Assembly (NCBI GenBank): GCA_015680685.1
Contig: MNCI01000323.1
Coordinates: 59,305-123,304, forward strand
Reading direction: 5' to 3'
Source: Gnetum montanum
Taxonomy: Eukaryota > Plantae > Gnetophyta
DNA length: 64,000 nt
Each line of letters opens with the position of its first letter. Within the stretch, counting starts at the first letter, position 1. The notes below the pieces were generated by a model. That model saw only the letters and a program-made list of their open reading frames with translations, was not told the DNA's origin and did not search any database. Below, piece after piece: positions 920 to 64,000 of the stretch. Position numbers and translations under genes: made by a program.

Positions 920-1005
920 CTTGTATTTTTGGCATGGCCACGAGATTGTTCTTGGAGCTATAGTGCACAACCTCAAATCCGACGATGACCTGGAAACCAG
1001 ATCTA
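920..1005 (-). pseudogene. Short fragment resembling the transmembrane 9 superfamily (TM9SF/EMP) luminal domain
   Basis: SGFQVIVGFEVVHYSSKNNLVAMPKIQ resembles the plant TM9SF motif GYxIVGFEVVPCSxKxxxxxMxKL; only ~28 aa. Confidence 0.4.
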
Positions 1006-1096
1006 GATCTATATCTGGTGCTTTGCTGCTGCGAAAATAGTGCCAACAAATGATGTAGACACAGGAACAGGGACCCTTCCTTCTTCTTTTTGTTCC

Positions 1097-2351: not shown

Positions 2352-3215
2352 TGATGAATCATAGTTTGTCAAGCCTCGATATCGGATCCTCGATATTGGG
2401 TATGCGATATCATAGCCTGGATAATGATATCGAATACACGATATCATGAATCCTGTGTAGGCCTATAAATATAGCATTCAAGAACATAGGAAGGAGTCAG
2501 TTGGTAAGTCTTAGGATAAATTCTTTTTGTCAATTTATAGTTAGTTTCAATTCTTTCCCCAATGCATGCCCACAATGTGATGATTGTAATTGTATGGAAC
2601 CTTTGTTTGAGTGTGATGTACTTGGACACGCACACGATCAATAATAAAGATTGAGATTACTCCATCATTGCAGCATTCACTTAGCTTTTAATTACTTTAA
2701 TTGTTAATTATTTATTTTTTTCTTTTTAGTTCATATTTCCTTTATTGTCATTTACACTACTTATTGATTAACACGGAATGAGTACCACTTAATCATGAAC
2801 ATGTAAGTGTAACTACTTGGTAACCCAGTAGTGTATCTAGTAGTGATCAAGTAATATATGCTTGGTAATTCTAGAAGTAGTACATGAAGTCCAAGATGCA
2901 TAAAAATGATTAAATATGGATGCTCATCACACTTAGGGTTAGCATAGATTTCATTTTCCATTGTCCATTACCTTAATTAAGATTGTTCCCCATCGTCTCT
3001 AGCAGTAGCACTAGTTTAGGATCCCATCATTCACCTCACTATAGACTAAACCATACGTGACAAAGAAAATACTAGTCTAGGTGGGAAGATAGCGAACTAT
3101 GATCAATGTGTAACTATCTAGATACCACGACAAGTCCGTCTGCGAAGTTTGACTGGATCGTTCGTACATGCTCGTATTCATATGGTTGAGCGTAGGAGTA
3201 CCTTGCCACTCATCA
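2352..3215 (+). mobile_element. 3' LTR of an Athila-like element (divergent subfamily) with its PPT
   Basis: ttattcagtcatggaggta (PPT, ~2333-2351) directly precedes TGATG; GATATC repeats and ctataaata follow; ends ...gtaccttgccactcatCA like the other Athila-like LTRs in the window. Confidence 0.8.
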
Positions 3216-35031: not shown

Positions 35032-35483
35032 GGTATTCAAAGAAGCTCCAAGTCACTAGGTCCTGAGAGCCCTAGAGCTAGATTAAGTTATCGATTTGAC
35101 CTCTGTAAATCACGTTTCATCCAAAAATCATTTTCCGTTGAGCCGCATTCATTTCTAAAAATCATTTTATGCTTCGCTGTTGTCTTCCTTGTCCTCCACC
35201 CACACGCTATCAAATAAGGCCCTGGTGTTGACTCGTGTGTGCGTGCTTAGTACTGCAGAAATGCTCAATAAACACAGGTGTAGCTGCCACTGCTGCAAGA
35301 GATCCCTCTTCCAGTGCATAGGAAGGTAAGTAACGCATCCGATGATGGAGGGTTTCTTCAAGATCAAACCCTAGGCACTGTCTCACGCGTCTGGTGCTAA
35401 ACCTCTAGATACAGTGCGCTGGAGGTCTCTTTCAACCACGCTCTACTTCTGTTGCCATTTCAAGCTCCTGCATAAGGAACCTT

Positions 35484-36075
35484 ATGGCTCTCGTCAACCT
35501 AAAATTAACTAAAAATAATTTCTATGGTCGTCTTCTTTCCTGGACAGGCAGCTTCCACAAACTGCAATTTTTGAGCTTCACTTTCAACCAATTTAGCAGG
35601 GACATTCCAGTGTCACTCGCCAATCTCTCCCAACTTGACTTTACACATAACGGACTGATGGGCACAGCACCTTCTTCTTGGATAGGAAAAGTCTGTAGTC
35701 ACATGGTTTACTTGAATGTGGGGAAATACTATTTCATAAGTGAAGACGACGTCAGCACCCATTCTTATCTTGGAAGCTCTATCCAATTGCTTTGTCTTAC
35801 AGGAACTACGTCTTTACCAAAACATGCTAACTGGAACTTTACCAGTCAATTTGGTGAGCTTCTGGCCAAATATGCAGGACATGGATGTGTTTTCCAACTT
35901 CATAACTGGAAGCATCTCTGCAAGCTTAGGAAATCTGTCTTCTCTCTATTGGTTTCAATTGGATGATAATACATTGAGCTGCAGCATCCCTTCTCAGATT
36001 GCAAATTTGAAGTCTCTGCAGGATTATGGTCTTTGAGACAACAAATTTCTTGGCAAGATTCCCACTGAAACCTCT
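35484..36075 (+). pseudogene. Plant extracellular LRR (RLK/RLP) fragment, frameshifted
   Basis: LxLxxNxF/LxGxIP repeats (NLKLTKNNFYGRL, LRLYQNMLTGTLP, LGNLSSLYWFQLDDNTLSCSIPSQIANL). Confidence 0.8.
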
Positions 36076-42794: not shown

Positions 42795-44235
42795 CTTTAT
42801 TTATAGTGTTTTTGGTAAACATGTGACTCGTTGGTAACTGCAAAGCACAATCACAGTCAGAAATTTACTAATTGGGCTGATGGTACTATATTTTTTATGA
42901 CAAGAAAATTTAAAACTTTCTTTGTAGCATGAAAAATTTATAAAATTTCTTCAACCAACTTCTTAACAACAGAACAATTTAGCAAATTAGGCAAGTACAA
43001 ACAATAAAATATTTAAAAAGAGAAATAAAGTGGAATTACAATAGTGTAACTAAAAAGTATTAGTAACCTGCTTATTAGAGGGATGATGCTCAAATACTAG
43101 CGTGGGGTGATGCATGGGTGCTAAGTGGGATGGGTTGGGTCCTATGACTAGGTGATGATCTGGCGACATCATCAGAAATAAAGGTTGGGTAGCATGGGGT
43201 CTGGACGGATGCTAAAGTCTCGCGGCTATGTTTTGGGGACATTGAGGGATGGTCCAAGGTCTAGAGGGATGCTGGAGTCTTGTGGCTGGGTTTTGGGGAC
43301 ATTGGGGGATGGTCCGAGTGTGGTATGTCATCATGTGGGTTTATTTTGAATGGGCCAAATTGAGTTGGCTTGTGCTATACACCCTTGTACATATTTTTTT
43401 GGATTAATTTATTTTGAATTTTTCTCCAAAAAAAAGTACTAGTAACTTGTTAATTATTGAATTGCAGAGTTACCATATGTAACATCATGTAACTACCATG
43501 GCAACATAGAAGCATTATTTGGTAATTTTGAATAATTCCATAACTATATGTTAATAATTTTGCCCAAAAAATTTCAACTTAAATATGACGTAACTATATA
43601 TTAATCATTAATCATAATTTCTATTAATAATAGCCATAATAAAATTCTTTCAATTTCAAAAAAAAAACCTTACACATGGATTTTTAAATGTTATGCATGC
43701 CAAAATCTAGTTAGAAATGTTCAAGTGATTTCTTGATCCACTACTAGATATCATGGTGCACTTAAAACTTATAATTTTGATTCTAATGTTCTCTATATTT
43801 ATGGTGTTTTTTGTAAATATATGACTCGTTGGCAACTACAAATCACAGTCACAGTCACAAATTTGAATATACTTTTTTATACCAAGAAACTTGAAAACTT
43901 TGGGTGTAACATAACTTTATAAAACTTCTTCTACCAAATTCTTCATAGAAAATTAAGCAAATACAAGCAAAAAGTATAAAACAAGAGATATACAATGGAA
44001 TTACAACATCACAACAAAGAGTACCATTGTGGCAGTATAATGGTTACCAAATGTAAAATCAGGTGACTACCCTAGCAAGATAGGATCATTATTTCGTAGT
44101 TTTGAATAATTTCATAACTATATGTTAATAATTTTGCCCAAAAAATTACAAGTTATGTATGGCATAACTATACATTAGCCATGAATCATAATTTCTATTA
44201 ATAATGGCCGTAGTAAAATTCTCTCAGTTTCAAAA
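42795..44235. repeat. Old tandem duplication of non-coding DNA
   Basis: 42795-43040 aligns with 43795-44010, and 43510-43660 with 44085-44235. Confidence 0.7.
43071..43430 (+). mobile_element. Short non-LTR retroposon (5'-truncated LINE or SINE-like)
   Basis: Ends in an A-run; flanked by a 19-bp direct repeat aaaaagtaYtagtaacYtg (43052-43070 / 43431-43449); internal ~60-bp duplication; absent from the sister copy of the duplication. Confidence 0.6.
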
Positions 44236-44819
44236 ATAGGTTACAAAATATTGGAAATTCCATTAAATTTGTTATCTGGAATTCAAAAGCATTGCAAAGA
44301 TATATGTATCCACTCAAAAGGATAGTAATTCCAATGATGTTGTTCTATCACGGATTTCCTCTACTTTGTTTTGAATCTCCATTGATAAACTGGAGGCCTC
44401 CATGTGGGAATTCATTCCTTCTAGGCAAGTACATTTTTCAGTAGCACTACTCTCTAAATCATTTCAAGTGTTACACTACATCTTGTAGACATTAAACAAA
44501 ATTTTTTACTACAATGGAATACACATCATTCTCTAAAAAACTGAAAATAAAATTTGTGTTACAAATAGTAATTTACTTTTGAAATTGGAAACATGATGGT
44601 CAAAATGATCTTAGCATATAAATTACTTAGGTCCTAAATGTTATATTAATTATACATGGAATAAATATATCTCTAACCAAATTGCAAGTGGGATCTTTCT
44701 AAGATTAATCCCCTCCACCAAAAGAGAAATAAATTTAAATGTAACTCTTTCCCATTTCAGCTTTCATAACTACTGATTCATTAATGTCTAAAGCTGAGTG
44801 AATATATTCACAATTTATA

Positions 44820-47800
44820 ATCGCAATATAAAAAAATACAATCTTTATTGCTCACACAACTTTTTACAAGAAGCAAGGAATACTTTAGAGGTGCAATACG
44901 TAGCACTCTAGATCTCTCTTGCTTTTTAGCGTACAAGGAATGCTTTGAAAGGCACACAATGCAGCACTTTCAGATCTCTCTTATACCACTCTAGAGTAAT
45001 GAATGCTTCACAGATGCACAAGGCGCAACAATCTGGATGTCTCTTACTCTTTTACTCACACTCTTTTACTCACACTAGACAACTCTCTAACTCTTTGTTA
45101 TATGCTCTCAAAACTTTTTGGACCTCTACTTCTACTTACAAGACTTTATATAGGCGTGCAGCCACCACCTTACAATCAGATAAACATTACATAGTGGAAG
45201 ACAACATGATTGCAAATATTACATTCTAGCAAACATTATTATATGGAATATTTGATACATGATTCTTTTTATGGGGCAGTGTCAAGTGTGCTTGGTGGAG
45301 AATCACTTTCTCTTGGTGTGGTCATTTATTTTGCCTTGAATTCCTCTAAATGTGATGTGTCCATAGTACTGTCAGCAATTATGCCTGCGAGATAAAGAGT
45401 TTTCTCATATCCACCATGACGTCGAAAGGTTTCAATGTGTGGTTCCAAGTTGTAAAGCTCAAGGGTACATGGCACGCATTGCTGATTTTGACAGGTCATA
45501 ATGATATCATAAGTGATAATGGTGTACACATCCTAGAAAAAGGCATAACTAAAAGTATTGTCTCAATCAATGCATCTAGATATACAAGTTGTCAAAAAAT
45601 ATAATGATGGATTAATGGTTTAACCAAAATGCCAATTTTTGGATTCAAGATGAGCATAATAGAGCAAGTCACCATGATAAGAGGGAAGTCGATGATAAAG
45701 GTTCCTAGGATATCCATTTGGTATATGTAAAGAGGAGAGACCAAAACGTGCCCACCAATCCCAAAATAAAACATTTTTATTTGAAGGATAATTAATAGGA
45801 CTCATTTCTATTTTATAAAGGTGGACAGGATCAAGCTAATACAATGGCCAACACAAAATTTCAAGAGGATTACCATGTTGGATGTCAATATAAGTCATGA
45901 GTTTGCAGTGGATGGGGATGACAGACAAATCCTCTCTTTCATCTTGGATTGTAAACACCTTTTGGACTATAGTGGTATATGGGGATATATTTTGGTTTAT
46001 TAATAGGAAGGAATCCCACCATGGTTCACATTCATGTTTGTAGAATGCTTGCTCTGCAAAAGACATATAAGTTTCATGACAATGTAGATGCCTAAGCTAT
46101 CAACAGTAGCGCAATGTCCATCCTTCTTGCTGTAATAGATCTACAAGACTTATATACAAGTTTAATACAAACATATTATGAGAAAAATAATAATTAAAAT
46201 TGAAATTCTCTAGTAAGGAAATCTGCTAGAGAATTATTCTTTCCATCTAAATATTGAGTTTCAAAAGAAAATTTAGGTAGAAACAAATACCATTGAATTA
46301 ATTTTGTATGAGCAACTTTGTTAAGATTTTTCTTTATGTGTATTGTGATAATTGAGTTGGGGTGTATTGTGATAATTGAGTTGGGGTGCATTGAATTTAC
46401 TAGAAGCATATCAACAAATATGAATAATACCATCTATTTCTTCTTTTAAGGTAGCTCCCCAAAATTCATAGGATGCATTTTCCTCAAGAATGAATCTACC
46501 ATTAGTTGGGAGTCTAAGCTTTGGAAGATGTAGACATTTTTCTTTAATTTGTTTAATATTAGTTTTATGTTGTTCAGTCGAAGCTCCAACATTAGAACTT
46601 AATTGTTGATTTAACAATTTTCTGTCTTTAGCAAGATGTTGATAAAATCCTGAAACATAATTGATGCAACTAAGAAACTGTTGAAGTTGAGTTTTATCAG
46701 TAATAATGTCAGGAAAATTCTTGATTGCAATTAGCATGTCGGTTTGCAGATGGATATGTCCATGTGAAATTTCTAAACCAAGAAAATTCACAGTTGGTTG
46801 AGCTATAGTCATTTTCTTTTTAGAAGGTGATAGGACTAATCCATTTTCATCCACTAATTCATAGAATTTTTCTAAATGTTGAAGATGGTCTGCTGCATTT
46901 TTGCTCATGATTAAAATATCGTCAATATGTATAATAATAAAAGGATATTCAATAAATATTTTATCTATACATTGTTAAAATATAGAGGGGGTAGTTTTCA
47001 ACCCAAAGGATAAAATTTTCCATTCGTAAAGTCCACTGAGGACTGTAAAAACAGTTTTCCATTAGTCAGGTTTGTGAAGTTGGATTTGCCAAAATCCAAA
47101 TTTTAAATCAAATTTTGAGTAAATGTTCATATGTTGTAATCGTTGAAGTAAATCATCTTTACTCGAAATGGGATTTTAAATAGATTTAACAATATCATTC
47201 AGGGGTTTATAATTAACCACTAGCCTTTTTTTACCGCAAACTATTTCTGCTCTTTTATTAATGTAAAAAGAAACACATGCAAGGAACTAGTGATAAGTTG
47301 AATGAGTTGTTTTTGTAGTAATGTCTAAATTTCCTGATCACATTCTTTACGTACTTCAAGTGACATTCCAATATGATGTGCCTTACTTTGGATTTTGACA
47401 TTATCTTTTAAATCTATCATACACCAATGTTGTTTTTTATGATGGAAAACAATCAGATCTGATGCTAATCTAAGCAATTTCCTTTTTATAGTATCAAAAG
47501 CATCATGATGGTGTGATATTTGATTTATGACCCAATCTATTTTTTGAGTTTTTTGTTTAAGTAGTGTTTCAAATCTAATTTTATAAGTAGATTGTCTAGG
47601 AAAAAAATATTTCTTAAAATAATATTTTAAGAAGTAATAGCATATGGTTATAAAGTTTGTAAATTATCAGTACCAACTAATAAATCATAGGATGGAATAT
47701 TAAACTGATAAACTTGCAAAAACATGATGGTTCTTTTAGGAGTATAGATGGGAATGGAGGTTTGCATTTCTATTGTTCTATGTTGTGTATTAAACACAAC

Positions 47801-50057
47801 CATTTGCTTTTCGCCATTTTTCCAACAAAAGTCAAGAAGAACTTTAGGTCCAGCTAAAGATATTTTTACTCCACTATCAATCAAAGCATTAATAGGATAA
47901 GATTTTAAACTAGGTAGTTTAATATGAAAAGTACAAAAAAGTAATGATGTTTTTACCTAATTTTTGTTAACTAATTGAATTGGTGAAGCTTGTTTACCTT
48001 GTTCTTCATAAATTTTTCGTTGTTCACTTTTCTCTTCTTGTTTTAATTCCTATAATTATCTGTTGGCCCATTCAATGAACGTTTGCAATTGTTGTATCCT
48101 ATGAGTTCGCCATAAGGATCTTTGTGTTGGATCATTAGCATTTAATGGTTGTTTGTTTTATTTTTTCACATTCTTCTTCTAATTTTAATAAATCTTTGAG
48201 TTGTTCTTCATCAGGTGGTTGAGAATCTTCATGAAATAAAGCTTGTTCTTTTAAATATCTTTTATGTAGTTTGATTTCCTCTTTCTTTTCATTAATTTTA
48301 TGTTCAAAGAAAATACATTTGTGAATATGATCAACAAGTGGAGTTTTCTTTACAGCTTTCTACAAATTCTCAAGTTGGTTGTTTAATTCTTACAGAATTA
48401 AATTATCATCAGGATTATGATATTGAGGAATGTGACCTTTTATATATGGCCTAGTAGAAGGTCTAAAACAAGATGGGTTATTTTTATAAAAATTGATATT
48501 ATAGTAAAAAACATCAAAATCATCTGAATCCAAATTAAGATCGGGATAATCATCATATTTATGATCAAAAGGAAGCCATTCCATACCTTCAAATAAATAG
48601 TCATATGATGTATGTATTATGATATCCCCTTATTGTAAACCAATATCTTCATTTGTAACCCAATCATAATATTGTTCATTTAATGGATGTTTTTCAATAA
48701 AATTAATCTTATTTTGATGATAAGATTTCTGAGGGCATTGATTTGAAAAATGTGGACCTTGGCAAAGATAACATTTAATATTTTTTCAAGGAAGTTTTCT
48801 TTGTCTACGTTTAAACATTCCTCTAAACCTTTTTCCTTCTGGTCGTATTGTTTGAGGTTTTCTATGCCATTATTGCTATCTTCTTAGTCTTTTTCATTTT
48901 TTATTTTTTTTTTGGGATGTTGTTCTTTTTTGGCAACATGCTTTTTCTTTGTAAAACATTTCTTTTGGATAGATCTCTAAACAGATAGATTTTCCTATTT
49001 TTTTTTTACTAAGATCTACTATTTGGCGTTGTGCTTGTTGGTCATAGCAAAGTTCTTTATTAATGTTGGTAATAAATTTCCTAATTTCACCAAAACTCAT
49101 TTCTACTAAGACTAAATTTTAATGTTTTACTTCAGCCAAATATTTGTTACAAAATGGTTGGAGTCAACAACCTGGTAGATGCTCTTTTGCGCCAATCTCA
49201 TGCGTCAATTTTCCATTATAATATAATTCTTCCATCGTGTCTAAAAATCTATATAAATCTTGGATTTTAGGTTATCTAGCTTTAAAAAATCTATCCCTAT
49301 ATAAATTTTCTTGATTTTTTCTATTTCCTACAAATTCTTTTGTAATAGCATTTAAAATAAAAACACTCGGTGCATTAATCAACTTTCTTTTGATTGGATT
49401 AGGAATATGGTTCCACCATTGTTTAAAGATACCTCTAAAAAGATAAGTAGCATTCTAGATAGCTTGTCTAGAGGTTTTTCTTTTTAATAAAATCTGAATA
49501 AACAAATAACTATAAATTGAGTCAATGAATTCTTGTCTTTCTTATAGATTTTTATTATCCATTGTAAAAATTGGGCTTTTATCTTGAGCTTTTCGTACTT
49601 GAATTGCAGCAAAATCTATAAGATCTTCTATTTGTGTATTAGAAGTTTTGGATAGTAAGATCTTTTCTTCAAAATCTGAGGTAGTACCTCCTTCTAATTC
49701 AGTACTACTAGTAGAGGGTGTTTTGATGTGAATACCACTAGTATTAGCACTGACTTTTGATTTTCTTCTTTTTTTTTCTCTCCTAATTCGTTTTGTTTTC
49801 TCCTGTATCTTGTAGTATGTGATTTTCCTATGTGAGGTGGAGATCCCAGAATAGGTAATTCTTTTAGTGAAGATAGAACACTCGTTTGTACTTTTGGTAC
49901 CCAGACGCTATGTATTTGTATGAAATTATTATATATAATGTCTAACTTTTTATCTTGTTTTGCTACCATTTCTTCTATATTATCAATATTTGTATTTGCC
50001 CAGTTTTGGAGTTGTACTATATTAAAAGGTTGGAGTTTTGCAGTTGTACTATATCAG
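44820..50057 (-). mobile_element. Endogenous caulimovirid A, left arm plus central single-copy spacer
   Basis: Decayed CP with CYLCQGPHFSNQC knuckle, protease ALIDSG (~47875), RT IHIDDILIMS (~46920), RH ending NSLADFLTREFQF (46194), extra ORF 45269-46140, TATA 45145-45152, AATAAA 44844-44849; no integrase or LTRs. Confidence 0.9.
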
Positions 50058-53000
50058 AAGCTAGAGATAAAACCCCAATTTTTACAATGGACGATAAAAA
50101 TCTACAAAAAAGACAAGAAGTCATTGACTCAATTCATTATTATTTGTCCATTCAGATCTTATTAGAAAGAAAAACCTCTAGACAAGTTACTCGGATGCTA
50201 CTTATCTTTTTAGAGGTATCTTGAAACAATGGTGGAACCATATTCCTAATCTAATCAAAAGAAAGCTGATTAATGCACTGAGTATCCTTATTTTAAATGC
50301 TATTACAAAAGAATTTTTAAGAAATAAAGAAAATAAAGAAAATTTATATAGGGATAGATTTTTTAAAGATAGATTAACTAAAATCCAAAATTTATATAGA
50401 TTTCTAGATACGATGGAAAAATTATATTATAATGGGAAATTGACGTATGAGATCGGGGCAAAAGAGCATCTACTGGGTTGTTTACCCTAACCATTTTGCA
50501 ACAAATATTTAGTTGAACTAAAACGTTAAAATTTAGTCTTAGTAGAAATGAGTTTTGGTAAAATTAGGCGATTTATTACCAACATTAATAAAGAACTTTA
50601 CTATGACCAGCAAGCACAATGCCAAATAGTAGATCTTAGTAAAAAATTAGGAAAATCTATTTGTTTGGAGATCTGTCGAGAAGAAAGGTTTTACAAAGAA
50701 AAAGCATGTTGTCAAAAAAGGACAACATCCTAGAAATAATGCAAAATACCAAAAAGATAGCAACAATAGCGTAAAATACCTCAAAGAATACGATCAGAAG
50801 GAAGAAATGTTAGAGAAATGTTTAAATGTCGATAAAGAAAACTTCCTCAAAAAGATATTAAATGTTATCTTTGCCAAGGTTCACATTTTTCAAATCAATG
50901 CCCTTAGAAATCTTATCATCAAAATAAGATTAATTTTATTGAAAAAGATCAATTGAATGAACAATATTATGATTGGGTAACAATTGAAGATATTGGTTTT
51001 CAATAAGGGGATATTATAATACATACATCAAATGACTATTCATCTGAAGATATGAAATGGCTTCCTTTTGATCATGACTATAATGACTATCCTGATTCTA
51101 ATTTCAATTCAAATGATTCTGATGTTTTCTATTGTAATATGAATTTTTATAAAAATTGCCCATCTTCTTCATCCTCTTTTAGACCTCTTGCTAGGCCATA
51201 TAGAAAAGGTTGAATTTCTCAATGTCATAATCCTAATGATGATTTAATTCTACAAGAATTAAACAATCAACTTGAGAATCTGTAGAAAGCTTTAAATAAA
51301 ACTCCTCTTGATCATATTCACAAATGTATATCCCTTTAACATAAAATTAAAGAAAATAAAGAGGAAATCAAATTGCATAAAAGAAATTTTAAAAAACAAG
51401 CTTTATTTTATGAAGATTCTCAACCATCTGATTCTTATAACGATGAAGAACAACTCGAAGACTTATTAAAATTAGAAGAAGAATGTGAAGAAATAAAACA
51501 AACAAAGCCATTAAATGCTAATGATCCAACACAAAGATTATTATGAAAAACTCATAAGATACAACAATTGCAAATGTTCATTGAATGGGCCACAAGAGAA
51601 TTATAGGAATTAAAACAAGAAGAGGAAAGTGAACAATGAAAGATCTATGAAGAACAAGGTAAACAAGCTTCACCAATCCAATTAGTTAACAAAAATCAGG
51701 TAAAAACATCATTACCTATTTGTACTTTTTATATTAAACTACCTGGTTTAAAATCTTATCCTGTTGATGCTTTGATTGATAGTGGAGCAGAAATATCTTT
51801 AGCTCGACCTAATGTTTTTCCTGACTTTTGTTGAAAAAATGGTGAAAAGCAAATGGTTGTGTTTAATACACAACATAGAACACTAGAAATGCAAGCCTCC
51901 ATTCCCATCTATACTCCTAAAAGAACAATCATGTTTTTGCAAGTTTATCAGTTTAATATCCCATCCTATGATTTATTAGTTAGTACTGATAATTTAAAAA
52001 ATTTAGAACCATATGTTATTACTTTTCAAAATATTATTTTACCAAATATTTCTTTTCTTAGACAATCTACTTATAAAATTAGATTTGAAACACTACCTAA
52101 ACAAAAAAATCAAAAAATAGATTGGGCCATAAATCAAATCTTACACCATCATGATGCTTTTGATACTACGAAAAGAAAACTGTTTACATTAGCATTAGAT
52201 GATCCTATTGTTTTTGGTCATAAAAAACAACATTAGTGTAGGATAGACTTAAAAGATAATGTCAAAATCCAAAGTAAGGCACATTATATTGGAATGTTAC
52301 CCGAACTACGTAAAGAATGTGATCAAGAAATTCAAACATTACTACAAAAACAACTCATTCAACCTAGCATTAGTTCCTTTGTATGTGCTACTTTTTACGT
52401 TAATCAAAGAGAAGAAATAGTTCGCAGTAAAAAAAAGGCTAGTGGTTAATTATAAACCCCTAAATGATATTGTTAAATCTGTTCAACATCCTATTCCAAG
52501 TAAAGATGATTTACTTCAAAGATTACAACATACACACATTTACTCAAATTTTGATTTAAAATCCAAATTTTGATTTAAAATCTGGATTTTGGCAATTCCA
52601 ACTTCACAAACCTAACCGATGAAAAATTGTTTTTACAGTCCCTAATGGACTTTACGAATGGACAATTTTACCCTTTGGGTTGAAAACTACCCCTTCTATA
52701 TTTCAACAATGTATGGATAAAATATTTTTTGAATATCCTTTTATTATTATATATATTGACGATATTTTAATCATGAGAAAAAATGTAGCAGATTATCTTT
52801 AACATTTAGAAAAATTCTATCAATTAGTGGATGAGAATGGATTAGTCTTATCACCTTCTTAAAAGAAAATGACTATAGCTCAACCAACTATAAATTTTCT
52901 TGGTTTAGAAATTTCACATGGACAAATCCATCTACAAATCCACATGCTAACTGCAATCAAGAATTTTCTCGACATTATTACTAATAAAACTCAACTTCAA

Positions 53001-53534
53001 TGATTTCTTCATTGTATCAATTATGTTTCAAGATTTTATCAACATCTTTCTAATACTAGAGCTTGGACTGAATAACATACAGTCGTTGTCAAACAAATTA
53101 AAGAAAAATGTCAACATCTCCCAAAGCTCAGACTCGCAACTAATGGTAGACTTATTCTTGAGACAGATGCATCCTATGAATTTTGGGGAGCTGCCTTAAA
53201 AGAAAAAATAGATGGTATTATTCATATTTGTCGATATGCTTTTGGTAAATTCAATGCACCCCAAATCAATTATCACAATACACATAAAGAACTTCTAGCT
53301 ATCATCAAAGGTGTTGAAAATTTCAGAATATTTTTAGCTGATAAATATTTTATCATCAAAAACAACTTAAAACACTTTGATAAGTATTTAGCCATGAAAA
53401 ATATTAACAAACTCACTCATACGAGATTGATCTGATGGTCTCTATTTCTAACTAATTTTTCTTTTGAAACTCAATATTTAGATAGAAAGAATAATTCTCT
53501 AGCGGATTTCCTTACTAGAAAATTTCAATTTTAA
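50058..53534 (+). pseudogene. Caulimovirid CP-AP-RT-RH polyprotein, decayed
   Basis: Domain order capsid/zinc knuckle, aspartic protease, RT (KFDLKSGFWQ, GLYEWTILPFGLKTTPSIFQ, YIDD), RNase H; multiple stops and frameshifts. Confidence 0.88.
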
Positions 53535-53587
53535 TTATTATTATTCTCATAATATGTTTATATTAAACTTTTATATAAGTCTTGTAG

Positions 53588-54470
53588 ATCTATTATAGCA
53601 AGAAGGATGGACGTTGCGCTATTCACGGTGACTCAGGCATCTACATTATCATGAAACTTATATGTCTTTTGTAGAGCAAGCATTCTACAAACATGAATGT
53701 GAACCATGGTGGGATTCCTTCCTGTTAATAAACCAAACTATATCCCCATATACCATTATAGTCCAAAAGGTGTTTACAAGCTGAGACGAAAGAGAAGATT
53801 TGTCTATCATCCCTATCCATTGCAAACTCATGACTTATATTGACATCCAACTTTGTGATTTTGATAATTTGTATGACAATCCTCCTGAAATTTTACCTTG
53901 GCCATTGTATCAACCTGATCCTGTCCATCTTTATAAGATAGAAATGAGTCCTATCAATAATCCTTCAAATAATACTTTTTTATTTTGGGATTGGTGGGCA
54001 CGTTTTGGTCATTCCCTTACACATATACCAAATGGATATCCTAGGCACCTGTACCATCGACTTACCTCTTATCATGGTGACTTGCTCTATTATGCTCATC
54101 CTGAATCCAAAAATTGGCATTTTGGTCAAACCCATAATCCACCGATATATTTTCTGACAACTTCTATATCTAGACACATTGATTGGGACAATACTTTTAG
54201 TTATGCCTTTTTCTAGGATGTGTACACCACTAACACCTATGATATCATTATGACCTATCAAAATCAGCAATGCGTGCCATGCTTTACAACCTAGAACCAC
54301 GCATTGAAACCTTTCAACGTCATGGTGGATATGAGAAAACTCTTTATCTTGCATGCATAATTGCATACAGCACTATGGACACATCACATTCATAGGAATA
54401 TAAGGCAAAAGAAATAACCACACCAAGAGAAAGTGATTCTCCACCAAGCATGCCTGACACTACCCCATAA
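53588..54470 (+). pseudogene. Caulimovirid post-RH ORF of unknown function (~290 aa reconstructed)
   Basis: WPLYQPDPVHLYKIE, FWDWWARFG, YHGDLLYY and DVYTTNTYDI are conserved in the left arm (45269-46140) and, at amino-acid level, in virus B. Confidence 0.7.
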
Positions 54471-54586
54471 AAAGAATCTTGTATCAAATATTCCATATAA
54501 TAATGTCTGCCAGAATGTAATATTCACAATCATGTTGTCTTCCACTATGTAATGCTTATTTGATTATAAGGTGGTGGCTGCATGCC

Positions 54587-54879
54587 TATATAAAGTTCTA
54601 TAAGTAGAAGAAGAGGTCTAAGAAGTGTTGAGAGCATATAACAGAGAGTTAGAGAGTTTTCTAGTATGAGTAAAAGAGTAAGAGATATCCAGATTGCTAC
54701 CCCTTACGCATCTGAAGCATTCCTTACTTTGGAGTGGTACAAGAAAGATCTGAAAGTGTTGCGCCATGCGCCTTTCAAAGCATTCCTTGTACGTTGAAAA
54801 GCAAGAGAGATCTAGAGTGCTACGTATCATGCCTCTAAAGTATTTCTTGCTTCTTGTTAAAATCTATGTGAGCAATAAA
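54587..54879 (+). promoter_or_regulatory. Viral pregenomic RNA promoter TATA (54587-54594) and poly(A) signal AATAAA (54874-54879)
   Basis: cctatataaag followed ~285 nt later by aataaa; both are mirrored in the left arm; this is the caulimovirid terminal-redundancy layout. Confidence 0.7.
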
Positions 54880-55299
54880 GATTGTGTATTTTTATATTGC
54901 GATACTCTTTGATCAATTTCACATGTCCACTCCCTCATGAGAGCTTGTTTGTCCAAGTCAAGTGGCAATGATTCCATGAATAGAAAAATGATTATTGAAG
55001 AATGGGTTATCTACTCCTTGTCCATTGTGTAAACTTTTGTGCACAAGTCTTTACATAAGCCCTAGGGTCTCATCTATCCTATAAATAGAGGGGGTGTGTA
55101 TGACCCCTAATAACCACCCTCTAAAAATTAGTACATTTTTTTCCTTTTCCAATCCTCTAAAAACATGGAATTATATTTATATTAGCAACTAATAATGATG
55201 TGACTCATAATGATGGGAGGATTATAGGGCCTATGTATCTCCTTTCCTCATTAGACTTAATAAATTGAAAGGTTAATCTCAGTTCCTAAGCTATATTAA

Positions 55300-55980
55300 C
55301 TAAATTTGTGATGTACACAATCACCCTAATTGCAATTCATAGTCATTCTACTTGCTCTGGCCCATGTCCATTCACACTTCAATATTGTTTTTTCACACTA
55401 ATTTTATGAATTTCTCTATCATTGGGTATTAATCTTTCAATTTCTATAGTTGTGTTAAAAGATTAATGTCACTTCTTGATTTGTATCAACTACAAAACAT
55501 GTACTTGTTAACTTCTTCATCTCAAGAACTAAATTTTTTATGCACTCCATCCAATGCGGTTGCAATTTTCCATTTTATGTTACACATCAACAATAATATG
55601 TTGTACAAATAAGCTATTTGAATGGCATGTTAGGATGGATTGCAAATTATTCCATCAAATCAAACATTGAAAATGACAATGTTATTATGTTTGACAATGT
55701 ATAAATTCTCCAACACATCTAATACAAATATAACCCCCTCTTCTTCTTCTTTAATCTCCAAACACTGCACAATCCTTAATTTGTAAGGTTGCATTGCAAA
55801 TATTGCTTTGTGATATCTATTGATCATACCAATTTGTACTCATTGTCAATCTTTGGGTCTCAAACTCTAATGGAATATTGCAATAAAACTTATTCTCAAT
55901 GAAATGCATCATCCTATCTCAAACACCTTAAATAGTGTTGTTTCATTCTGAAGTTATGATCTCACTTCCTTAATCATCTT
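55300..55980. repeat. Degenerate repeat block, same family as 62830-64000
   Basis: The unit ttgtatcaactac..aacatgtacttgttaac...atgcactccatc occurs at ~55480 and recurs at ~63060, ~63295 and ~63610. Confidence 0.6.
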
Positions 55981-55985
55981 TACCA

Positions 55986-56746
55986 TTTTTTTTGTGAAAA
56001 AGTCAAGTAATTTCATTAGAGAAGAAGGTAATATACAAAGCCTTGGGGTAAAAACCCTAGCAGCCCACAAAAATAAAATGATCACCCCCAAGGGGGATGG
56101 AACACCACACAAGGAACACATGTTCCAAAAGCAAAAACTGGGTGTCAAAGGTGGCCTAGCTTAGAAAATCCATAGTAAGGAAGAGTAGAAAATTGTCCAA
56201 TTTCTAAGCTATTTGAAGTATTATAGTCAAAACCAAACCCCAAGAATCCCATTGCATGTATCGGATAACCCCTCTTGGTCCTTGTAAGCTATGCCTTCAG
56301 AGGGGTCTTGGAAGTTTAGTATAGGAGCATCATGACCATTACTAGGCATGCACTGCATCCAAGACCACCCTGTAATGTTCTGATACAACAAAAGCCATGA
56401 CCTCTTGAAATTCCTTATACTACTCCTCCTACTGCTTCTGGGCGGCTTCTTCTAGGGTGGTGGCCTTATCTAGGTGGAGCTTAGTAGAAGTAGTCCTTAT
56501 GAATCTCCTTAGTCTAGCCCACAAGGCATTGTGGTTTATTCCCATGACCACATATGGACATCTTGCCATACGAAACTAGCACCTAGCATTTGACTCATGT
56601 GCAATGTCCTAGTTCATCTTCATTTGCTGCTCCGCCAAAAGGACCCTAGTCCATTGTTTGTTCTCCTCTTCCTCTCTTCTAAGCCACTCCTGCTCCTCCC
56701 ACCCCTCCTTCCATAAGTCAATATGGATATGGATGTCAATCTCAAA
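55986..56746 (-). mobile_element. Probable LINE 3' end with poly(A) tail
   Basis: Minus strand ends ...ttgtatattaccttcttctctaatgaaattacttgactttttcacAAAAAAAA, typical of a plant L1 3' UTR; same orientation as the LINE 5' part at 60255-62815. Confidence 0.5.
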
Positions 56747-59700
56747 AATATGTACGTAATTGTATCCGAGTTTTTTCTATTGCTCTACTTCCTCCAAGGA
56801 AAAAAATGAAAGTGAGACTGGGCGAAGATTGATGCCATTGATCTTCAAATCACATTCAGAGAAGTGCATACATTGCAGGGATTGTAGGGGATTCAAACTC
56901 ATAAGAGGGTAGATCTCACGTTGTTTCGAAAAGCGAAGGAAGCTTCAAACATGAAGAAGCAATACAGAAATGTGAAAATTTATCTATAGGAGGTAGATGC
57001 ACCAAAAAGATTGTGTTGATCACATCCATCAATTGCCATGATATGGGGTTGGGAGAATGCCAGCAAGATTGGATTTCGAATAGCATTGCAACTTATCCCC
57101 TCACTCCTTGGGCCTTACTGTGCACCTTACACCTATAGCAAATCACTCAATCTAAGAAGTCTTCGAGAACAATATCAAATCAAATAGGCAAATAAACACA
57201 GAAGATACTTGTAACAAGAGTATAACTTGACTTTGATACCAACTCTTGCCAAAATCACTCTCTTCGCATTGCAAACTCAACGCTCAAAGATTAAAAATAG
57301 AAAAAGCACAAAAACAATACTTCAAGATAAGAAAAAGCTTCAAAGTTCATATTATTCGCATTGGAACTAGGCCAAATATACAAGCAGAGAAGCAACTAAG
57401 GGATCCTTGGGAGAAGAATGCTTCAAAGGTGCTATGAGCTGCTCTTTGGATCTCTTTCTTCCAATGTCTCTTAACTTTGCTTTGGTACATATTCATAGTT
57501 GAGGCTAGAGCCTCTATAATCTTCTTGGTGCAATCCAACTATACAAGCACTAGTGGATGACAACTCATACTACACTTACAAAAGATAAGGGTGTACAACA
57601 CCCTAACATGATACATTAGTCCACTTTTACTATGGCACTGCTTTATAGTACAATAATTTACATAGTGGCAGACATAATCATGATTCTTTATGCATCTCCA
57701 AGAGAATCATAGCTACCATGTGATCCTACCTCATCATCGACTAAAGGGGAATCCCAAATTCTAGAGTTAGAAGGAGTTTCAGGTTTTCCACAAAGATATG
57801 TGACATTTTCATTACCTCCATTGTGGTACATATAAGCAACACAATAATCAATCATTTTCAAGTCAAGAGATCTGGGATTGAGATTGTGACAAGTACAATG
57901 TTGCTGGATATCATATGTATTAGAAGTGTAGATATCCTAGTAGAAAGAGCACCTCTAAGGGGTAGTCCAATCTAATTATCTTTTAAAATAGGAAACAAGA
58001 AAATAAGAAGGTGGCTCATTGAATAGCTCAATATTCTAGGCTTGGGCTTGTAAGTTCCTATAGTAAAGGTAATCACCATGATAATCATTACGACGGTTAA
58101 GGAGATGAGTTGTGTAAGATTCATGGAGATAATTAGGTAACTATCCAAACCTTTGCCACCATAGCCAAAATAGCTCATTAGGTAGGATCCAGGGATTGAT
58201 TTCTATTTTATATACATGAAAGGGACTTGGTTGATAATGAGGCCAATTAAGAACGTGTTTAGGAGTAGCTTCAAAACAAAGATCTTGTAGTTCTATATTA
58301 GTTTGGCATCAAACTTCTCTGAAGGTGGAGTCACCAAGTCTTGGAAGGAATGTTTGAATGGAAATATTTGATAATGATGCATTTGTCTGAAGGTACCTGA
58401 TGAACCATTAAAAACTTTATTTCCACCCTTCTTGGAAAGATTCTTCGATGAGCATAGTTAGATATTAACCTAGTATGTGCTACCTTATTGAGGGCCTTCG
58501 TACTTAAATACTTATCAAAATGATTTAAATCACTTCTAACTTTAAAATGCATGTTCTATAAGAACAGCCTAAATTTATCTATGTCTTTTATAATGGCCAG
58601 AAGCTCTTTGTGTGTGTTGTGATAGCTTTATAGAACATCATTAAATTTTTCTTAAGCATACTTGCATATCCAGATAACATTGTCCTTTTCTTCTTTGAAA
58701 GCAACTCCCTAGAATTCATGGGAAGCATCGATTTCAAGAATCAACTGTCCATTAGTAGGTAGTTGTAACCTAGGTAGATTAGAGAATTGTTGCTTAATCA
58801 GAGCAATAATTTTTGTATGCTTTGAAGTCCATTCTGGAGTATTTTCACCTAACCTTTCATTAAGGAGCATTTTGTAGATGTTTATAAAAGCTAGATACAT
58901 AGTTTACACAACCAAGAAATCCCTAAAGTTGTGTTTTGTCCTTCAGTTCATTTGGAAATGTCTTTATAGCTTCTAGGACATGTGGCTACAAATATATCGT
59001 GTCATTTCTTATTTTTAATCCTATGAATTCTATAGAATTGGCTATGGTCATCTTGGTAGGAGATAAGACTAAACCATTATTGTCTATTAATTGTTTAAAT
59101 ATCTCCAGATGTTCAAGATGTTGTTAAGGATTCTTACTCATAACTAAAATATCATCTATCTATACAAGAATAAAGATCTTACCAAATATTTGGTCCATAC
59201 ACTTGAAAAATAGAGGGGGCCGTTTTGATTCCAAAAGGTAAGACCATCCATTCATATAATCCTCCTGGCACAGTGAAAATTTTTTTCCACCTATCATTTG
59301 GTTCGACTTGTATTTGTCAAAATCCTAAGTTTAAGTCAAACTTAAAATAAACATTAGTATGAAGGAGGAGTTGAAATAGATCATCCATGCGAGGTATAGG
59401 ATGTTGGACTAGTTTGATTAAATCATTTAAAGGGTTGTAATTAACTACAAATCTTTTCTTCCCTCTAACTTGTTTTGTGCATTTGTTTACATATAATACA
59501 GCACAAGAAAACATACTAGTGCTAGGTTGGATTAGTTTTTCATCTAGTAATGCTTGTATTTCTTGATTGCATTCTTTCTTTAGACTTGAAGGCATACCAA
59601 TATGATGTGCCTTTGTTTTGATTTTTATATTATCTTTGAATTCTATCCTACACCATTGTTCTTTCTTGTGTTTGAACACTCTAGGATCATCATTAGCTGA

Positions 59701-60254
59701 TTCTAGTAACGTATTTGTTGTTAGGCTAAATTTGGTTTATAGATTGTGCACATTATTTAAAACCCATTACCTATTAGATTGTTTGTTGGAAGATTGTAGT
59801 GATGGGAACCTACTAATATATCTATGTTGCAGGGAGAAGTTTTCTCCAAAAAAACTTACATATGTGAAACCTATTGTATAAGGTTCTAGTCTTTGTAAGT
59901 TGTCTGTCCCAATAAGCATGTCGTAATATTTTATCTCACAATGGACTATTGTAAGATATAACAGTCTTCCCTTATTTTTTTTTATGGGTATAGTTGCTTT
60001 ATGCTTATGATACATCTTCTCTATGTTAAACCTAATATCATTTTCTTCTATAGGTTCCCATAAGTGAAATGGGATTACATTCCATTTAGAAATGGATATA
60101 TTAGCACCTAAATCTATTAGTATGTCTACAAAATATCATTTATAATTTTATAACTTAATAAAAAATATACAAATAGGTTTATGTAGTCTTTACCTGAGAA
60201 TTAGCATTTATTTTTAATATAGACATGACTTGATTTTCTGCCTGATATTCCTAA
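56747..60254 (-). mobile_element. Endogenous caulimovirid B (distinct species): AP-RT-RH, extra ORF, intergenic region, PBS, start of movement protein
   Basis: ILIDLGANISIS (~60095-60125), RT 59000-59680 (RGKKRFVVNYNPLND, FKFDLNLGF), RH LILEIDASHEF (~58710), extra ORF ~57690-58440, tRNA-Met PBS TGGTATCAAAG 57231-57241, MP motif SLEEVEQxKKLGYNYVHI ending ~56747. Confidence 0.88.
57231..57241 (-). promoter_or_regulatory. tRNA-iMet primer binding site of virus B
   Basis: TGGTATCAAAG (canonical TGGTATCAGAGC) between the viral intergenic region and the MP-like ORF. Confidence 0.75.
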
Positions 60255-62815
60255 GTTCCAACTCTTGCCCCATAAACGGCCTCAGCAACGTCTGGTTCTC
60301 AACATGCCCTAACACTTTCTAAATTAGAATAGAAATCTTCCTCATATCCCTCTACTGCCAAATGATCACCCAATAGGTCTGTACCACCTCTACAACTAAC
60401 TTCGCACCCCCCACCGTCTCCCCCTCAAGCATAAGCTATACCTTTTTCTTAACTTGGTCATGCCCTTTTGCCAAAGCAAAGAAAAAACACATGTTACAGT
60501 CCCCCTCTCTTAACCAGTTGATTCAAGCCCATTGACGCGAATAAATCTTCTCTTCTAATGCCAATTCTTGTAACTCCCCAAGCACTTCACATTCCTCATT
60601 AGCTAGATCAACCCCATTTTCTTACCTCATTTGTATCTCCCTTAGTCTAGCTTGTAGCTACATGTGGTATGCCCTTAAATCGTATTTGTCCTTAGACACT
60701 CTAGACCATATTTTTTTCTTTAGCGCAATCCTTATTTCAAGAATTCTCTAGGTTTCTAATCACGTGATTATCCCTACCACATGTCTTGGACCAGCGACCT
60801 CAAGCACGCCTTCCCCAACCACGTACGCTTGAAATGGAAAGGCCTGGGAACTAATCCCTTATGATTTCATATCTGATAAAGAATCAACCTATGGTCCAAT
60901 AATTGTCTTTCCCTTCCCACCACCTAAATGGTGAGCTCCAGTACCATCCTCATACTAACCCACACATGGTCAATCCATGACTGGACCCAATCTTTTCCCT
61001 TCCTCCTATTACTCCATGTAAATTGACAGCCCATAATTTCCATGTCCACTAAATCATGATCTCTCATAAATGCAATGCATTCCATTCCCGCTAGGGGATC
61101 CATGGTTTCCCCTTCTATTTTCTCCCATGGGTACAATCATTGATTAAAATCACTGATCACAATCCATCTTTGCTTATTGGAAACCACCTGTGCAACCTAT
61201 CACAATTCTTGCACTTGAATCTCCTAATTTTGAGCACCATAAACATTTGGCAATCAAACATTCTCTTAAATCACATGAACCTTCTGACTCCATTGGGTTC
61301 ATTGATCAGCGTGATCTAAAATTGAGAGAGAATAGCCAACCCTTCAGCTCGACCCTTGCACGAAACCATCTACAACTGCCAGCCCACCCACCTCAACAAA
61401 CTGGATTTGGACACTTGCAACTTCGTTTCCTGCAAGCAAACCACATCACATCCTTCACTTCAAATAATCATTTTTAGGTATTCCATTTGTAGGAAGTACC
61501 TTGTCCCTTGCAATTCGAAGATAGAACCTTCATGGGTGACCTAGTGAGCATCTATGGTAGACCTCTTTCACAATCCTCTATAATCCCAAATTGATGTCAA
61601 ATTGTGTTAGCTTCTTCCGGGTCATCAACTTCCTCGAACACCTAGCCTTCCCCCCTACAAGGGAAATTGAGGCCATGCCCATCAAATCTTTAGTCTATTC
61701 TTGTTGGGGTTCTATGATGTCTTGCATTCGGGGCCTTAGAAGAACCCCTAGCAACCATAATCCAACTTCCCCATGGTGGACACTCACCACTTGGAGAAAC
61801 TAGATCTACTTTAGTCCCAACTTTCATTGTACAAGGTGTCTACTTGGCCGACTCTTCCATTAACGACTCTTCCACCAATGCTCCCTCCTTTTGCACCTCT
61901 GAAGTCTTATGCACAGCATGCCCATTGGTAATCCTAAACCAACTAGCTTGTTCTTGCTACGCTGGTGGTTGTTTCCATTTTAACTTTGTCTTGGCTTGGG
62001 CCTTGCAATCAGTAGCCAAATGCCCTTTCTCCCTACAGACAAAAATCTCCTTATCGACTAGCATGGGACTAGGGTTTCCAATGTTCTCGTACTCTATGCA
62101 GATCATCTCCATGCTAGAGGAAAGATCCAAAATAGCTTCGTTCACCAAATCCTTTGACAACAATAGTCGCCAAACATAGAAACACACAATCCATTTGCTC
62201 CATGGAGCAAGTGAAATGGTCAAGCATGATAAAATTTCCAAGAAATCTAGCAAGGGTTTCCAAGAAGTCTGTGGTCCATCATTCCCATGGAATGCTTAAG
62301 GCCCAAATCCACATAGGCACCCTACTAAACAAATCCTTCTCTCTGTGGGCACCTAACCTCCATTGTGTCAAGGCAAGCCCACACACCCCATAGAGCTACA
62401 AACCTCCAACTAAAACAGCTCTTCCAATAGACAACAAACCCCAATATCGACTAGTCCCCATGTAGTCTATGCCCACTGCTTTATCAAGTCCAAACAAGGC
62501 TACACTCTGCTAGAGACAAACCTCCCAATGAGACTCAACTCCATCGTTTTCACTTTGTCCACTAGGGTCCCACACACGTTCAGCCTCATACTCCCCTCCT
62601 ACCTGCTACAGGCATCGACTCCTCCTACTCCTAATTTCTAGCCCCCTAAAGATGCTAACACTTGGTCATCCCCACCTCCAAAATGAGCTTCCCGCATTTC
62701 CCATCCCCACTAGCCCAATTCTGCTTGCAACACCACCACTCTTTACACCCCCGCCCGCTGCAATCTCTACCCCAACACCAGCACCCACTCCTACTCCCAT
62801 GCCCTCTCTAGCCAT
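60255..62815 (-). mobile_element. L1-type LINE, 5' part: ORF1 and ORF2 endonuclease; RT absent
   Basis: ORF1 with VPMWIWALSIPWE and knuckle-like FVCREKGHLATDC; APE motifs WIVISDFNQ and GCQFTWSNRR...QSWIDHVWVS; INWLREGDCNMCFF; breaks after ENQTLLRPFMGQELE. Confidence 0.85.
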
Positions 62816-62829
62816 TTCAAAATCATCAT

Positions 62830-64000
62830 TCTAGAAGTTTGCTAATGTTTTGGAATGTCTTTCATTTGTTCGTCCTAATCACTGATGTTAGGCTCTATTT
62901 CTACTTGTCAATTCACTATTACTTGCAAAGCCTCATACTAACTAATATTGTCTTCTACTAGTAATTCAATGGTGTTATTAAACATCACCTTTGATGGCTT
63001 TACATCTCAAATTTCTTCTTTTTCAATTTTGATAATTCAAAGTTTAATGACACTTCCTAAGTTGTATCAACTACACCAACATGTAATTGTAAATTTATTC
63101 TTTCTAACGAGTAAACCTCTAATGTACTCAGCCAACAAAATTACAATTCCTAGTAATTACAATACTTGCAATGCCTCAAGTCTCTTCATACATCAACATT
63201 GTTGTTTTACATCAATTTGATGATTTTTTGTGTCTTTGGGTATCGCTCTCTCAACTTTCACAATTGCATTGGATGATACTTGTCATGTCTCAAGTTGTAT
63301 TAACTACAACAACATGCACTTGTTAACTTGTTCATTTTAATAATTGAATATATGATGCATTCCACCCACCTTGATTCTCATTTCTCATACCACATTACAC
63401 ACCAATAACAATTTGTTGTTCCACTAAGCTATTTTAGTGGCAAGTTGAAATGGATTGTGAATAACTCAATAATAGCAAGTAATCTTAGTTGCAATTTCTC
63501 ATAATAACTATTGAGATTTACTATAATGTTCCATTGTATGGATTTTATTCTCCTCAAATTACTAATGTTTCATTTTCTATAATTAAATGATAAATGTTAT
63601 TTCTTTAGTTGTATCAAAAACACCAACATGTACTTGGATATTGTTTGCTCTCATGAACTAAAATTCAAATGCACTTCATCTCCCTAATCGCAACTCATAA
63701 TCATTCTGCTTATAATGCCCCATGTTCCTTCATAAGTCAATATTGTTGTTTTGAATCAATTTAATAAATTTCTATCCTTGGCTATTGATCTTTCCATTTA
63801 TATGGTTGAGAGGAAAACCTGACTTCATCGATTTGATTGCATTCTTAATCCTTATTGTTAAACAACAATCATACTTGTCAATTTCCTTGCTAGCGATTCT
63901 AGTTTTAAATGTTCATGCAAAATATTGCGATTTACTTGTAGTGCTTTAAAATTATTTTTTGATATCACATTACATGAATTTTCTTCTACTTAAATTTCTA
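62830..64000. repeat. Degenerate ~250-300-bp tandem-like repeat block
   Basis: Three recognisable copies of the unit also found at ~55480. Confidence 0.6.

Follow-up and report, generated by a model that had tools for sequence, protein, structure and literature searches.

A window of 64,000 nucleotides from the gnetophyte Gnetum montanum (assembly GCA_015680685.1, contig MNCI01000323.1, positions 59,305 to 123,304 of the forward strand) contains a long palindrome built from a caulimovirid. Both of its arms are inverted copies of one viral fragment, which comprises capsid, protease, reverse transcriptase (RT), RNase H, promoter and leader, and the virus sense in both is directed outward from the centre. 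On the outside the arms stop at the same viral base, and on the inside they are separated by a short single-copy spacer, an arrangement that may record the integration of a fold-back viral DNA. Positions below are those of the window, the whole stretch that was analysed.

Architecture and gene content of the palindrome

The two arms (Table 1) were recovered as 19 collinear inverted segments in a repeat search of the window, and by blastn as two blocks with ~87% identity when gaps are counted. In a global MAFFT alignment of arm against arm there are 4205 matches, 489 mismatches and 19 gap events, which corresponds to 89.6% identity and a Kimura two-parameter distance of 0.114. The identity per 300 columns stays between 0.86 and 0.94 over the whole arm length, whether the sequence is coding or not. 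All three comparisons confirm the palindrome at 44820-54903, with its two caulimovirid copies pointing apart, that had been proposed from the letters and open reading frames (ORFs) in an earlier, sequence-only reading, and they extend to the full arms the ~90% identity which that reading had judged by eye in one 180-bp segment. Runs of N are absent within 44000-56000.

Nine public sequencing runs from four studies, all nine recorded as DNA, contain part of the stretch, and contigs were compared from six runs under six organism labels (X1, X2, X6, X8, X10 and X11). The turn at the centre is crossed by an X1 contig of 1083 nt (49283-50365, 1 other letter) and an X6 contig of 430 nt (49737-50168, 5 other letters), and the left junction is crossed by contigs of X1 (44737-44926) and X6 (44737-44930). 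X1 may be the sample behind the window assembly; X6 has its own differences. Because contigs under two organism labels cross both the turn and the left junction, the palindrome is a real structure. X1, X2, X6 and X8 each cover both arms, while X10 and X11 give just 3 and 2 short partial matches, in which neither cover of the locus nor an empty site was seen. A direct joint from 44820 to 54903 is absent among the 15 of 32 joints listed.

RVT_1 and RT_RNaseH Pfam matches are present in both arms. The closest database protein, P0001 (1768 aa), has Pfam movement protein (MP, PF01107), RT and RNaseH domains, with integrase absent from its Pfam list. It is 62% identical over the RT-RNase H query piece, and the arms are 60-63% identical to it across RT-RNaseH. 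In tblastn, P0001 residues 641-1768 map to the right arm and residues ~590-1765 to the left arm, collinearly in both and with many stops and frame changes. The 120 P0001 relatives listed include endogenous plant polyproteins, Petunia vein clearing virus, a Vaccinivirus and badnaviruses; the best match among them besides P0001 itself is only ~43-50% identical, so the lineage is sparsely sampled. The arms begin downstream of the movement-protein region, whose domain is seen in P0001 and, as an N-terminus, in a third viral copy elsewhere in the window. Each arm then runs in the order capsid zinc knuckle, protease, RT, RNase H, a conserved region, a TATATAAA box, a leader of ~280 nt with tandem repeats, and AATAAA.

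Other element types were looked for as well. An integrase domain was found in none of the 18 ORF pieces scanned, and no long terminal repeats (LTRs) were found, since blastn of the locus against the window returned inverted matches and the third copy only. Rfam reported no family in 43000-61000, and ARAGORN no tRNA gene in the window. An LTR retrotransposon was rejected, as the locus has no LTR, integrase or target duplication. The locus is an endogenous caulimovirid, and the identity assigned to it earlier is supported by the Pfam RT and RNase H matches in both arms and by the collinear P0001 alignment. Private tandem duplications also occur, namely a 19-nt unit repeated twice at 52545-52582 in the RT region of the right arm and a 24-nt unit in 2.3 copies at 46338-46393 in the left arm; at 46338 the contigs from X1 and X6 are shorter by 24 nt, which indicates that array length differs between samples.

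Table 1. Viral features of the palindrome and of the neighbouring copy, in window positions
Feature	Position	Strand	Remarks
Left arm	44820..49591	-	caulimovirid fragment, capsid region to leader; outer end 44820, 24 nt past AATAAA
Single-copy spacer	49592..50057	-	466 bp; extends the left arm's polyprotein upstream to ~residue 443 of P0001
21-nt direct repeat	50002-50022 and 50034-50054		20/21 identical, offset 32 nt
Right arm	50058..54903	+	same viral fragment as left arm; outer end 54903, 24 nt past AATAAA
Five in-frame stops common to both arms, right arm	50527-9, 50758-60, 51004-6, 51283-5, 51604-6	+	span 50527..51606
Five shared stops, left arm	49119-21, 48876-8, 48630-2, 48360-2, 48050-2	-	capsid to pre-protease part
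Capsid zinc-knuckle ORF piece (C-x2-C-x4-H-x4-C)	48633..48785	-	left arm; right-arm counterpart ~50900-50940; knuckle in both translations
Aspartic protease motif DSGA	51778..51789	+	right arm; left arm DSGV 47867-47878 (-)
Reverse transcriptase core	52623..52799	+	right arm, YIDD 52752-52763
Left-arm RT counterpart	within 46414-46974	-	HIDD 46918-46929
RNase H domain	53076..53432	+	right arm; polyprotein homology stops at 53531; no integrase after
Conserved region after RNase H, without Pfam match	53785..54216	+	common to left arm and third copy, e.g. KIEMSPIN, FWDWWARFG
TATATAAA box, presumed pregenomic promoter	54587..54594	+	right arm; left-arm copy 45145-45152 (-)
AATAAA	54874..54879	+	right arm, 24 nt before end; left-arm copy 44844-44849 (-)
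Third caulimovirid fragment, outside palindrome	56723..60189	-	~65% identical to arms; protease, RT, RNase H, then intergenic, then MP N-terminus

Outer terminus, spacer and turn

Both arms terminate at the identical viral base, 24 nt after AATAAA (...TATTGCGAT), where ~25 nt had been estimated earlier. The host flanks beyond the two ends are unrelated, with a best local score of 23 against 23.3 +/- 2.3 for shuffled sequences. Host flanking DNA inside the inverted repeat, which the sequence-only reading had named as a sign of later chromosomal duplication, was rejected on this comparison at shuffle level and because neither side of the repeat extends beyond that viral base. Comparison of the junctions revealed no target-site duplication or other direct repeat, in line with what had been noticed by eye, and neither end carries an A-rich tail. 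A high-copy repeat at 54913-55230 adjoins the right arm end and is matched by very many contigs in all four runs, with a summed contig depth of 860-3570 against ~1-160 for bins within the arms and 44-142 for the next bin on the right. Other copies of this repeat reach further left, which marks the present copy as truncated, its edge lying ~10 nt from the viral end; the left flank does not contain the lost portion.

The position of the common end can be compared with the third viral copy, which carries a sequence TGGTATCAAAGT resembling a primer-binding site (PBS) at 57230-57241, ~200 nt before its ORF start. Four short motifs, found in the same order in both arms and in this copy, served as anchors. 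Their distances to the right arm end are 181, 657, 823 and 958 nt, those to the left arm end 181, 683, 849 and 984 nt, and those to the PBS-like site of the third copy 174, 665, 831 and 957 nt (anchors 1-4). MAFFT places the arm end at most 1 nt from that site. The arm end would thus lie at the position expected of a primer site with a tolerance of ~10-25 nt, being 1-26 nt from the site in a 65%-identical copy, a link that is positional and not at base level. The third copy itself lies 1.8 kb from the palindrome and is unbroken across TGGTATCAAAGT; the window holds a small cluster of viral inserts, not all of which break at the primer site. Another PBS-like sequence, TGGTATAAGAGA in the left-arm leader (44977-44988), was rejected because it has 2 mismatches, belongs to a tandem-repeat unit and occurs at chance level (6 window matches against 4.1 expected).

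Contigs other than those of the arms match the leader in part. At 80% likeness these extra contigs lie on 44855-45002 and 45262-45335 only and then diverge, leaving ~50 nt before the end, and none passes 44820. This non-coding part of the leader seems to be common to other viral copies that differ elsewhere, judging from the contig matches. A comparable sharing of regulatory sequences has been reported between partner pararetroviruses (PMC5491270).

At the inner side, the spacer continues the polyprotein of the left arm, as two of its ORF pieces are collinear with P0001 (aa 545-631, E 7e-8; aa 443-484, E 0.035, weak). The single-copy stretch of ~465 bp described earlier was thereby borne out by the P0001 alignment. 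Measured on the viral genome, which spans several kb, the inner break points of the arms lie just 466 nt from each other. The duplicate noticed at the turn is present as well, as a 21-mer with one difference between its copies and not the ~19-mer first described. The second of these copies, which does not keep the reading frame, stops 3 nt short of the right arm and is thus a segment that was re-copied, or added as filler, where the arms were joined. The right arm opens with AAGCT, the complement of the final bases of the left arm (49587-49591 / 50058-50062); a microhomology there is uncertain, because the sequence has since diverged too far.

Decay of the arms and shared stop codons

Differences between the arms number 137/1029, 98/1029 and 85/1030 at codon positions 1, 2 and 3, and 136/1353 in non-coding sequence. 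Of 885 codons that could be compared between the arms, 650 are the same in both, 51 show a synonymous difference and 184 a non-synonymous one. The P0001 residue is kept by the right arm alone 60 times and by the left arm alone 51 times, and within the same codon set each arm has 13 private stops. The frameshifting indels examined (residues ~1380-1450) are private to a single arm, so that the separate lesions ascribed to each arm in the sequence-only reading are real. The transition/transversion ratio is 2.4, and 41 of the 489 differences are of CpG type. These figures fit neutral and roughly symmetric decay of two arms of the same age. Since third codon positions show no excess of differences, two viral isolates that diverged under selection are excluded; the ratio of 184 non-synonymous to 51 synonymous changes is likewise far from the mostly synonymous differences that had been proposed as their mark. 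Plant neutral rates are ~0.5-1.3e-8 per site per year, and with K = 0.114 the age of the arms would be roughly 4-11 million years.

Both arms also have five in-frame stops in common (Table 1). For four of the five, the surrounding context is conserved with P0001; the reading frame is less secure around the fifth, which is located in a basic stretch of low complexity. Private stops in the tblastn frames number 21 in the right arm and 17 in the left. All five shared stops fall within the half that holds the capsid, leaving protease, RT and RNase H free of them, whereas the private stops split 19:19 between the halves. The probability of this skew is 0.5^5, or ~0.03, a post hoc figure. It could hint at a source genome that was capsid-defective and RT-competent, or be chance. 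G-to-A hypermutation as the source of the shared stops was rejected, because they are TAA or TAG codons at places where P0001 has no tryptophan. Three origins are open for them, namely early gene conversion between the arms, a capsid-defective and helper-dependent source, and a single insert that was decaying before it was duplicated. Recent conversion tracts are not apparent, as the longest stretch of identity between the arms, 51 nt, does not exceed the null mean of 59. The existence of non-autonomous pararetroviruses has been deduced from the genomes of grasses (PMC5491270).

Elsewhere in the window, remains of a Ty3-type LTR retrotransposon lie at 3255-7878 on the minus strand (RT_RNaseH at 3255-3716, Retrotrans_gag at 7459-7878), with just 22% identity in their P0001 match. 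An ORF piece at 35409-35966 has a weak leucine-rich-repeat match. Nine N runs of 1 to 902 nt in 20211-41694 indicate that the assembly is gapped upstream of the palindrome. Beyond the third viral copy, 60545-64000 has a strong excess of C over G (GC skew ~-0.33) and contains a zinc-knuckle-like ORF piece without Pfam match (61957-62295, minus strand); this segment is probably another decayed retroelement.

Origin of the palindrome and its known counterparts

The explanation favoured here, with confidence slightly short of even, is a single old integration of a fold-back viral DNA that entered the chromosome already as a palindrome. Minus-strand DNA would start at a fixed 5' end (44820), presumably the base before the tRNA-Met primer-binding site, and this primer site would sit almost at the poly(A) site of the virus. 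A subgenomic minus strand would stall between the movement-protein and capsid regions, with its 3' end at ~50033. The 21-nt piece would be re-copied, and the polymerase would then switch onto its own strand at a short AAGCT-type match. The plus-sense self-copy would run off the end of the template (54903), leaving the 466-bp spacer as the loop. A chromosome break could then take up the self-complementary strand, and host repair would synthesise the second strand without duplicating the target. The five shared stops would stem from early gene conversion between the arms or from a capsid-defective, helper-dependent source genome.

Close inner ends, outward polarity and an exact shared terminus all follow from this fold-back account. 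Outward arms, with a spacer that continues the left arm only, have the polarity expected of a minus strand, which grows upstream in the virus sense, when it snaps back. One exact viral terminus near the place of minus-strand priming therefore suggests that what integrated was an extrachromosomal molecule of defined structure. The fold-back intermediate first proposed in the sequence-only reading thus agrees with the geometry, the common terminus and the neutral arms; its link to the primer site is positional only, and the shared stops had not been foreseen. A narrower version, in which the locus is the fossil of a snap-back minus-strand DNA from a capsid-defective, RT-competent, helper-dependent caulimovirid and inverted-repeat loci are born ready-made as reverse-transcription hairpins, is rather doubtful.

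A number of observations weigh against the fold-back account, several of which concern the primer site. In semi-global alignments the last 40-330 nt of the arm place its end anywhere from -113 to +76 nt from the PBS of the third copy, and the scores for 60, 100 and 150 nt are no better than those of shuffled sequences, being reached by 73-265 of 300 shuffles. The identification of the end point with the minus-strand priming site, as claimed earlier, consequently holds for position, within 1-26 nt, and lacks significance at base level. The arm-end region and either flank contain no good match to a PBS. The same virus continuing past the arm end was not found in contigs, viral contigs or metagenome scans: a P0001 search of viral contigs gave no relative, a pattern of the arm-end motif plus the PBS start had 0 matches in viral contigs, and of two metagenome scans one was empty and the other gave a single RT locus of 38% identity (L001), which has RT-RNaseH similarity only and no PBS. 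The arm end may be described equally well as lying near the poly(A) site, or the cleavage site of the pregenomic RNA. These two descriptions would coincide if the lineage has almost no spacer between primer site and poly(A) site, as at the R-U5 end of an LTR. The evidence is moreover a single old and decayed locus, and the identity of its terminus with the primer site is unproven.

The turn and the arms add further difficulties for the fold-back account. Slippage of the template, invoked earlier for the duplicate at the turn, fits the 21-mer as a product of polymerase template switching; host end-joining filler DNA fits it equally, and a reverse transcriptase is therefore not shown to be the enzyme. 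Host end joining of the polymerase-theta type leaves a re-copy of this kind as well. Either the viral RT or a host repair polymerase may have made the turn, and the sequence does not decide between them. A loop of 466 nt would also be large for self-priming. The five shared stops mean that the common ancestor of the arms was already defective, or that sequence was exchanged between the arms early, so that a fresh intermediate of an infectious virus needs an added assumption. As recent conversion tracts are lacking, any conversion can only have been early. Finally, the right junction at 54903 is crossed by no contig among those listed, and it adjoins the high-copy repeat.

Much of the same evidence would also be produced if host end joining had linked two linear subgenomic viral DNAs head to head before a single insertion, each DNA having one end fixed by replication at the minus-strand discontinuity and the other broken at random; this reading is possible yet unlikely. 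It gives the same coincidence of outer ends and the same neutral arms of equal age, and the 21-nt duplicate is similar to filler DNA as left by microhomology-mediated end joining. Reviews also describe concatemeric as well as rearranged, multicopy endogenous caulimovirids whose insertion is ascribed to non-homologous end joining or microhomology repair (PMC10377300). What such joining must accept is that two molecules broke within 466 nt of each other, an estimated ~1-in-8 coincidence on a genome of ~7.5 kb, that both defined ends face outward, and that both molecules came from the same defective population to give the shared stops. These stops are best explained by an insert that decayed for a while as a single copy until chromosomal fold-back or template-switch repair produced its inverted duplicate, since five shared stops against ~19 private ones per arm are what single-copy decay predicts. 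Inverted-repeat pararetroviral loci of tomato have indeed been ascribed to chromosomal micro-rearrangements (Valli et al., PMC9868043). Such a duplication would, however, have to end by chance exactly at the boundary of virus and host, as the flanks share nothing, and uniform decay does not predict that every shared stop lies on the capsid side when private stops do not; this origin is accordingly judged improbable.

If an element with a fixed terminus had inserted twice independently, side by side and in opposite orientation, the shared end would be unsurprising, and the nearby third copy shows that caulimovirid fragments cluster in this window. Two such insertions are nevertheless very unlikely: the arms are equally decayed and hold five stops in common, host DNA is absent between their inner ends, which meet within 466 nt of viral coordinates, the compared contigs show no further copy with this terminus at 80% likeness or more, and all four organisms with the locus cover both arms. 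The distance of 24 nt past AATAAA is typical of cleavage, and it could suggest that the shared end is the 3' end of a polyadenylated viral RNA retrocopied by a host RT in the manner of a long interspersed nuclear element (LINE). Such a retrocopy is hardly credible, because the ends have no A-rich tail, a target-site duplication is missing, and twin priming yields an inversion between different parts of an RNA rather than of one part present twice. A DNA end is preferred over an RNA end, since the 5' end of the DNA made in caulimovirid replication lies at the primer site and since neither arm end has an A-tail.

If the narrower version with a helper-dependent source is true, inverted-repeat pararetroviral loci that feed defence by 22-nt small interfering RNAs (siRNAs) would arise ready-made, without later chromosomal rearrangement. 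The fold-back account would also provide a rule for genome surveys, in which outer ends are fixed at the priming site, turn points are variable and arms always face outward.

Hairpin (snap-back) DNA of cauliflower mosaic virus (CaMV) has reportedly been found in infected cells by Marco and Howell in 1984 and by Turner and Covey. A minus strand continued into a plus-sense copy of itself, as in these hairpins, gives the geometry of the present locus once it is made double-stranded. The CaMV hairpins are episomal molecules of infected tissue, whereas the present palindrome is integrated and has a 466-nt loop. We know of no integrated example of CaMV-type hairpin DNA, and a search of a collection of open-access papers found no published integrated palindrome derived from a pararetrovirus replication molecule. 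Snap-back genomes of adeno-associated virus and copy-back defective interfering RNAs are similar in that a truncated genome has the same terminus at both ends after the polymerase switched to the complementary strand; they differ in polymerase and genome type and are not integrated fossils. The double-stranded linear DNA of hepadnaviruses offers another parallel, as these are pararetroviruses without integrase in which a linear by-product of reverse transcription integrates with its ends clustered at the priming sites, although in an animal virus. Chromosomal fold-back inverted duplications of yeast and human likewise have a short single-copy spacer and microhomology at the turn, but they carry flanking chromosomal DNA, whereas the repeat described here stops at the viral end on both sides.

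Integrated counterparts are found in plants. In tomato, inverted-repeat pararetrovirus loci ('TSAs', Valli et al. 2022) give rise to hairpin transcripts and 22-nt siRNAs and are ascribed to micro-scale chromosomal rearrangement (PMC9868043), and cases of inverted-repeat endogenous pararetroviruses in soybean and banana are summarised in PMC10377300. According to these sources, such loci are credited with antiviral hairpin RNA, and both their origin and the entry of integrase-less plant pararetroviruses into genomes are still speculative (PMC10377300, PMC9868043). The present locus resembles them as a rearranged caulimovirid inverted repeat, the arms of the known loci being a few hundred to several thousand bp long and of variable identity (PMC9868043, PMC10377300). 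In these accounts, they contain varied viral portions with no general pattern, whereas here the same long collinear fragment is present twice with one end base. In rice, the viral ends of ERTBV segments (endogenous and similar to rice tungro bacilliform virus) cluster in the intergenic region and at genome discontinuities, which was taken as a mark of integrated replication forms (Kunii et al. 2004, PMC526188), and viral ends in tobacco likewise lie at discontinuities or in the intergenic region (Jakowitsch et al. 1999, as cited in PMC526188). The present end is similar to these junctions in lying in the intergenic region near the place of DNA priming, a position read there as illegitimate recombination of the replication form (PMC526188). 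The rice and tobacco cases are single junctions that cluster in a region (PMC526188), whereas here two junctions of one locus lie at exactly the same base. Inverted viral inserts of this general kind are thus already known in plants, and the new feature of the Gnetum palindrome is an exact terminus shared by long collinear arms.

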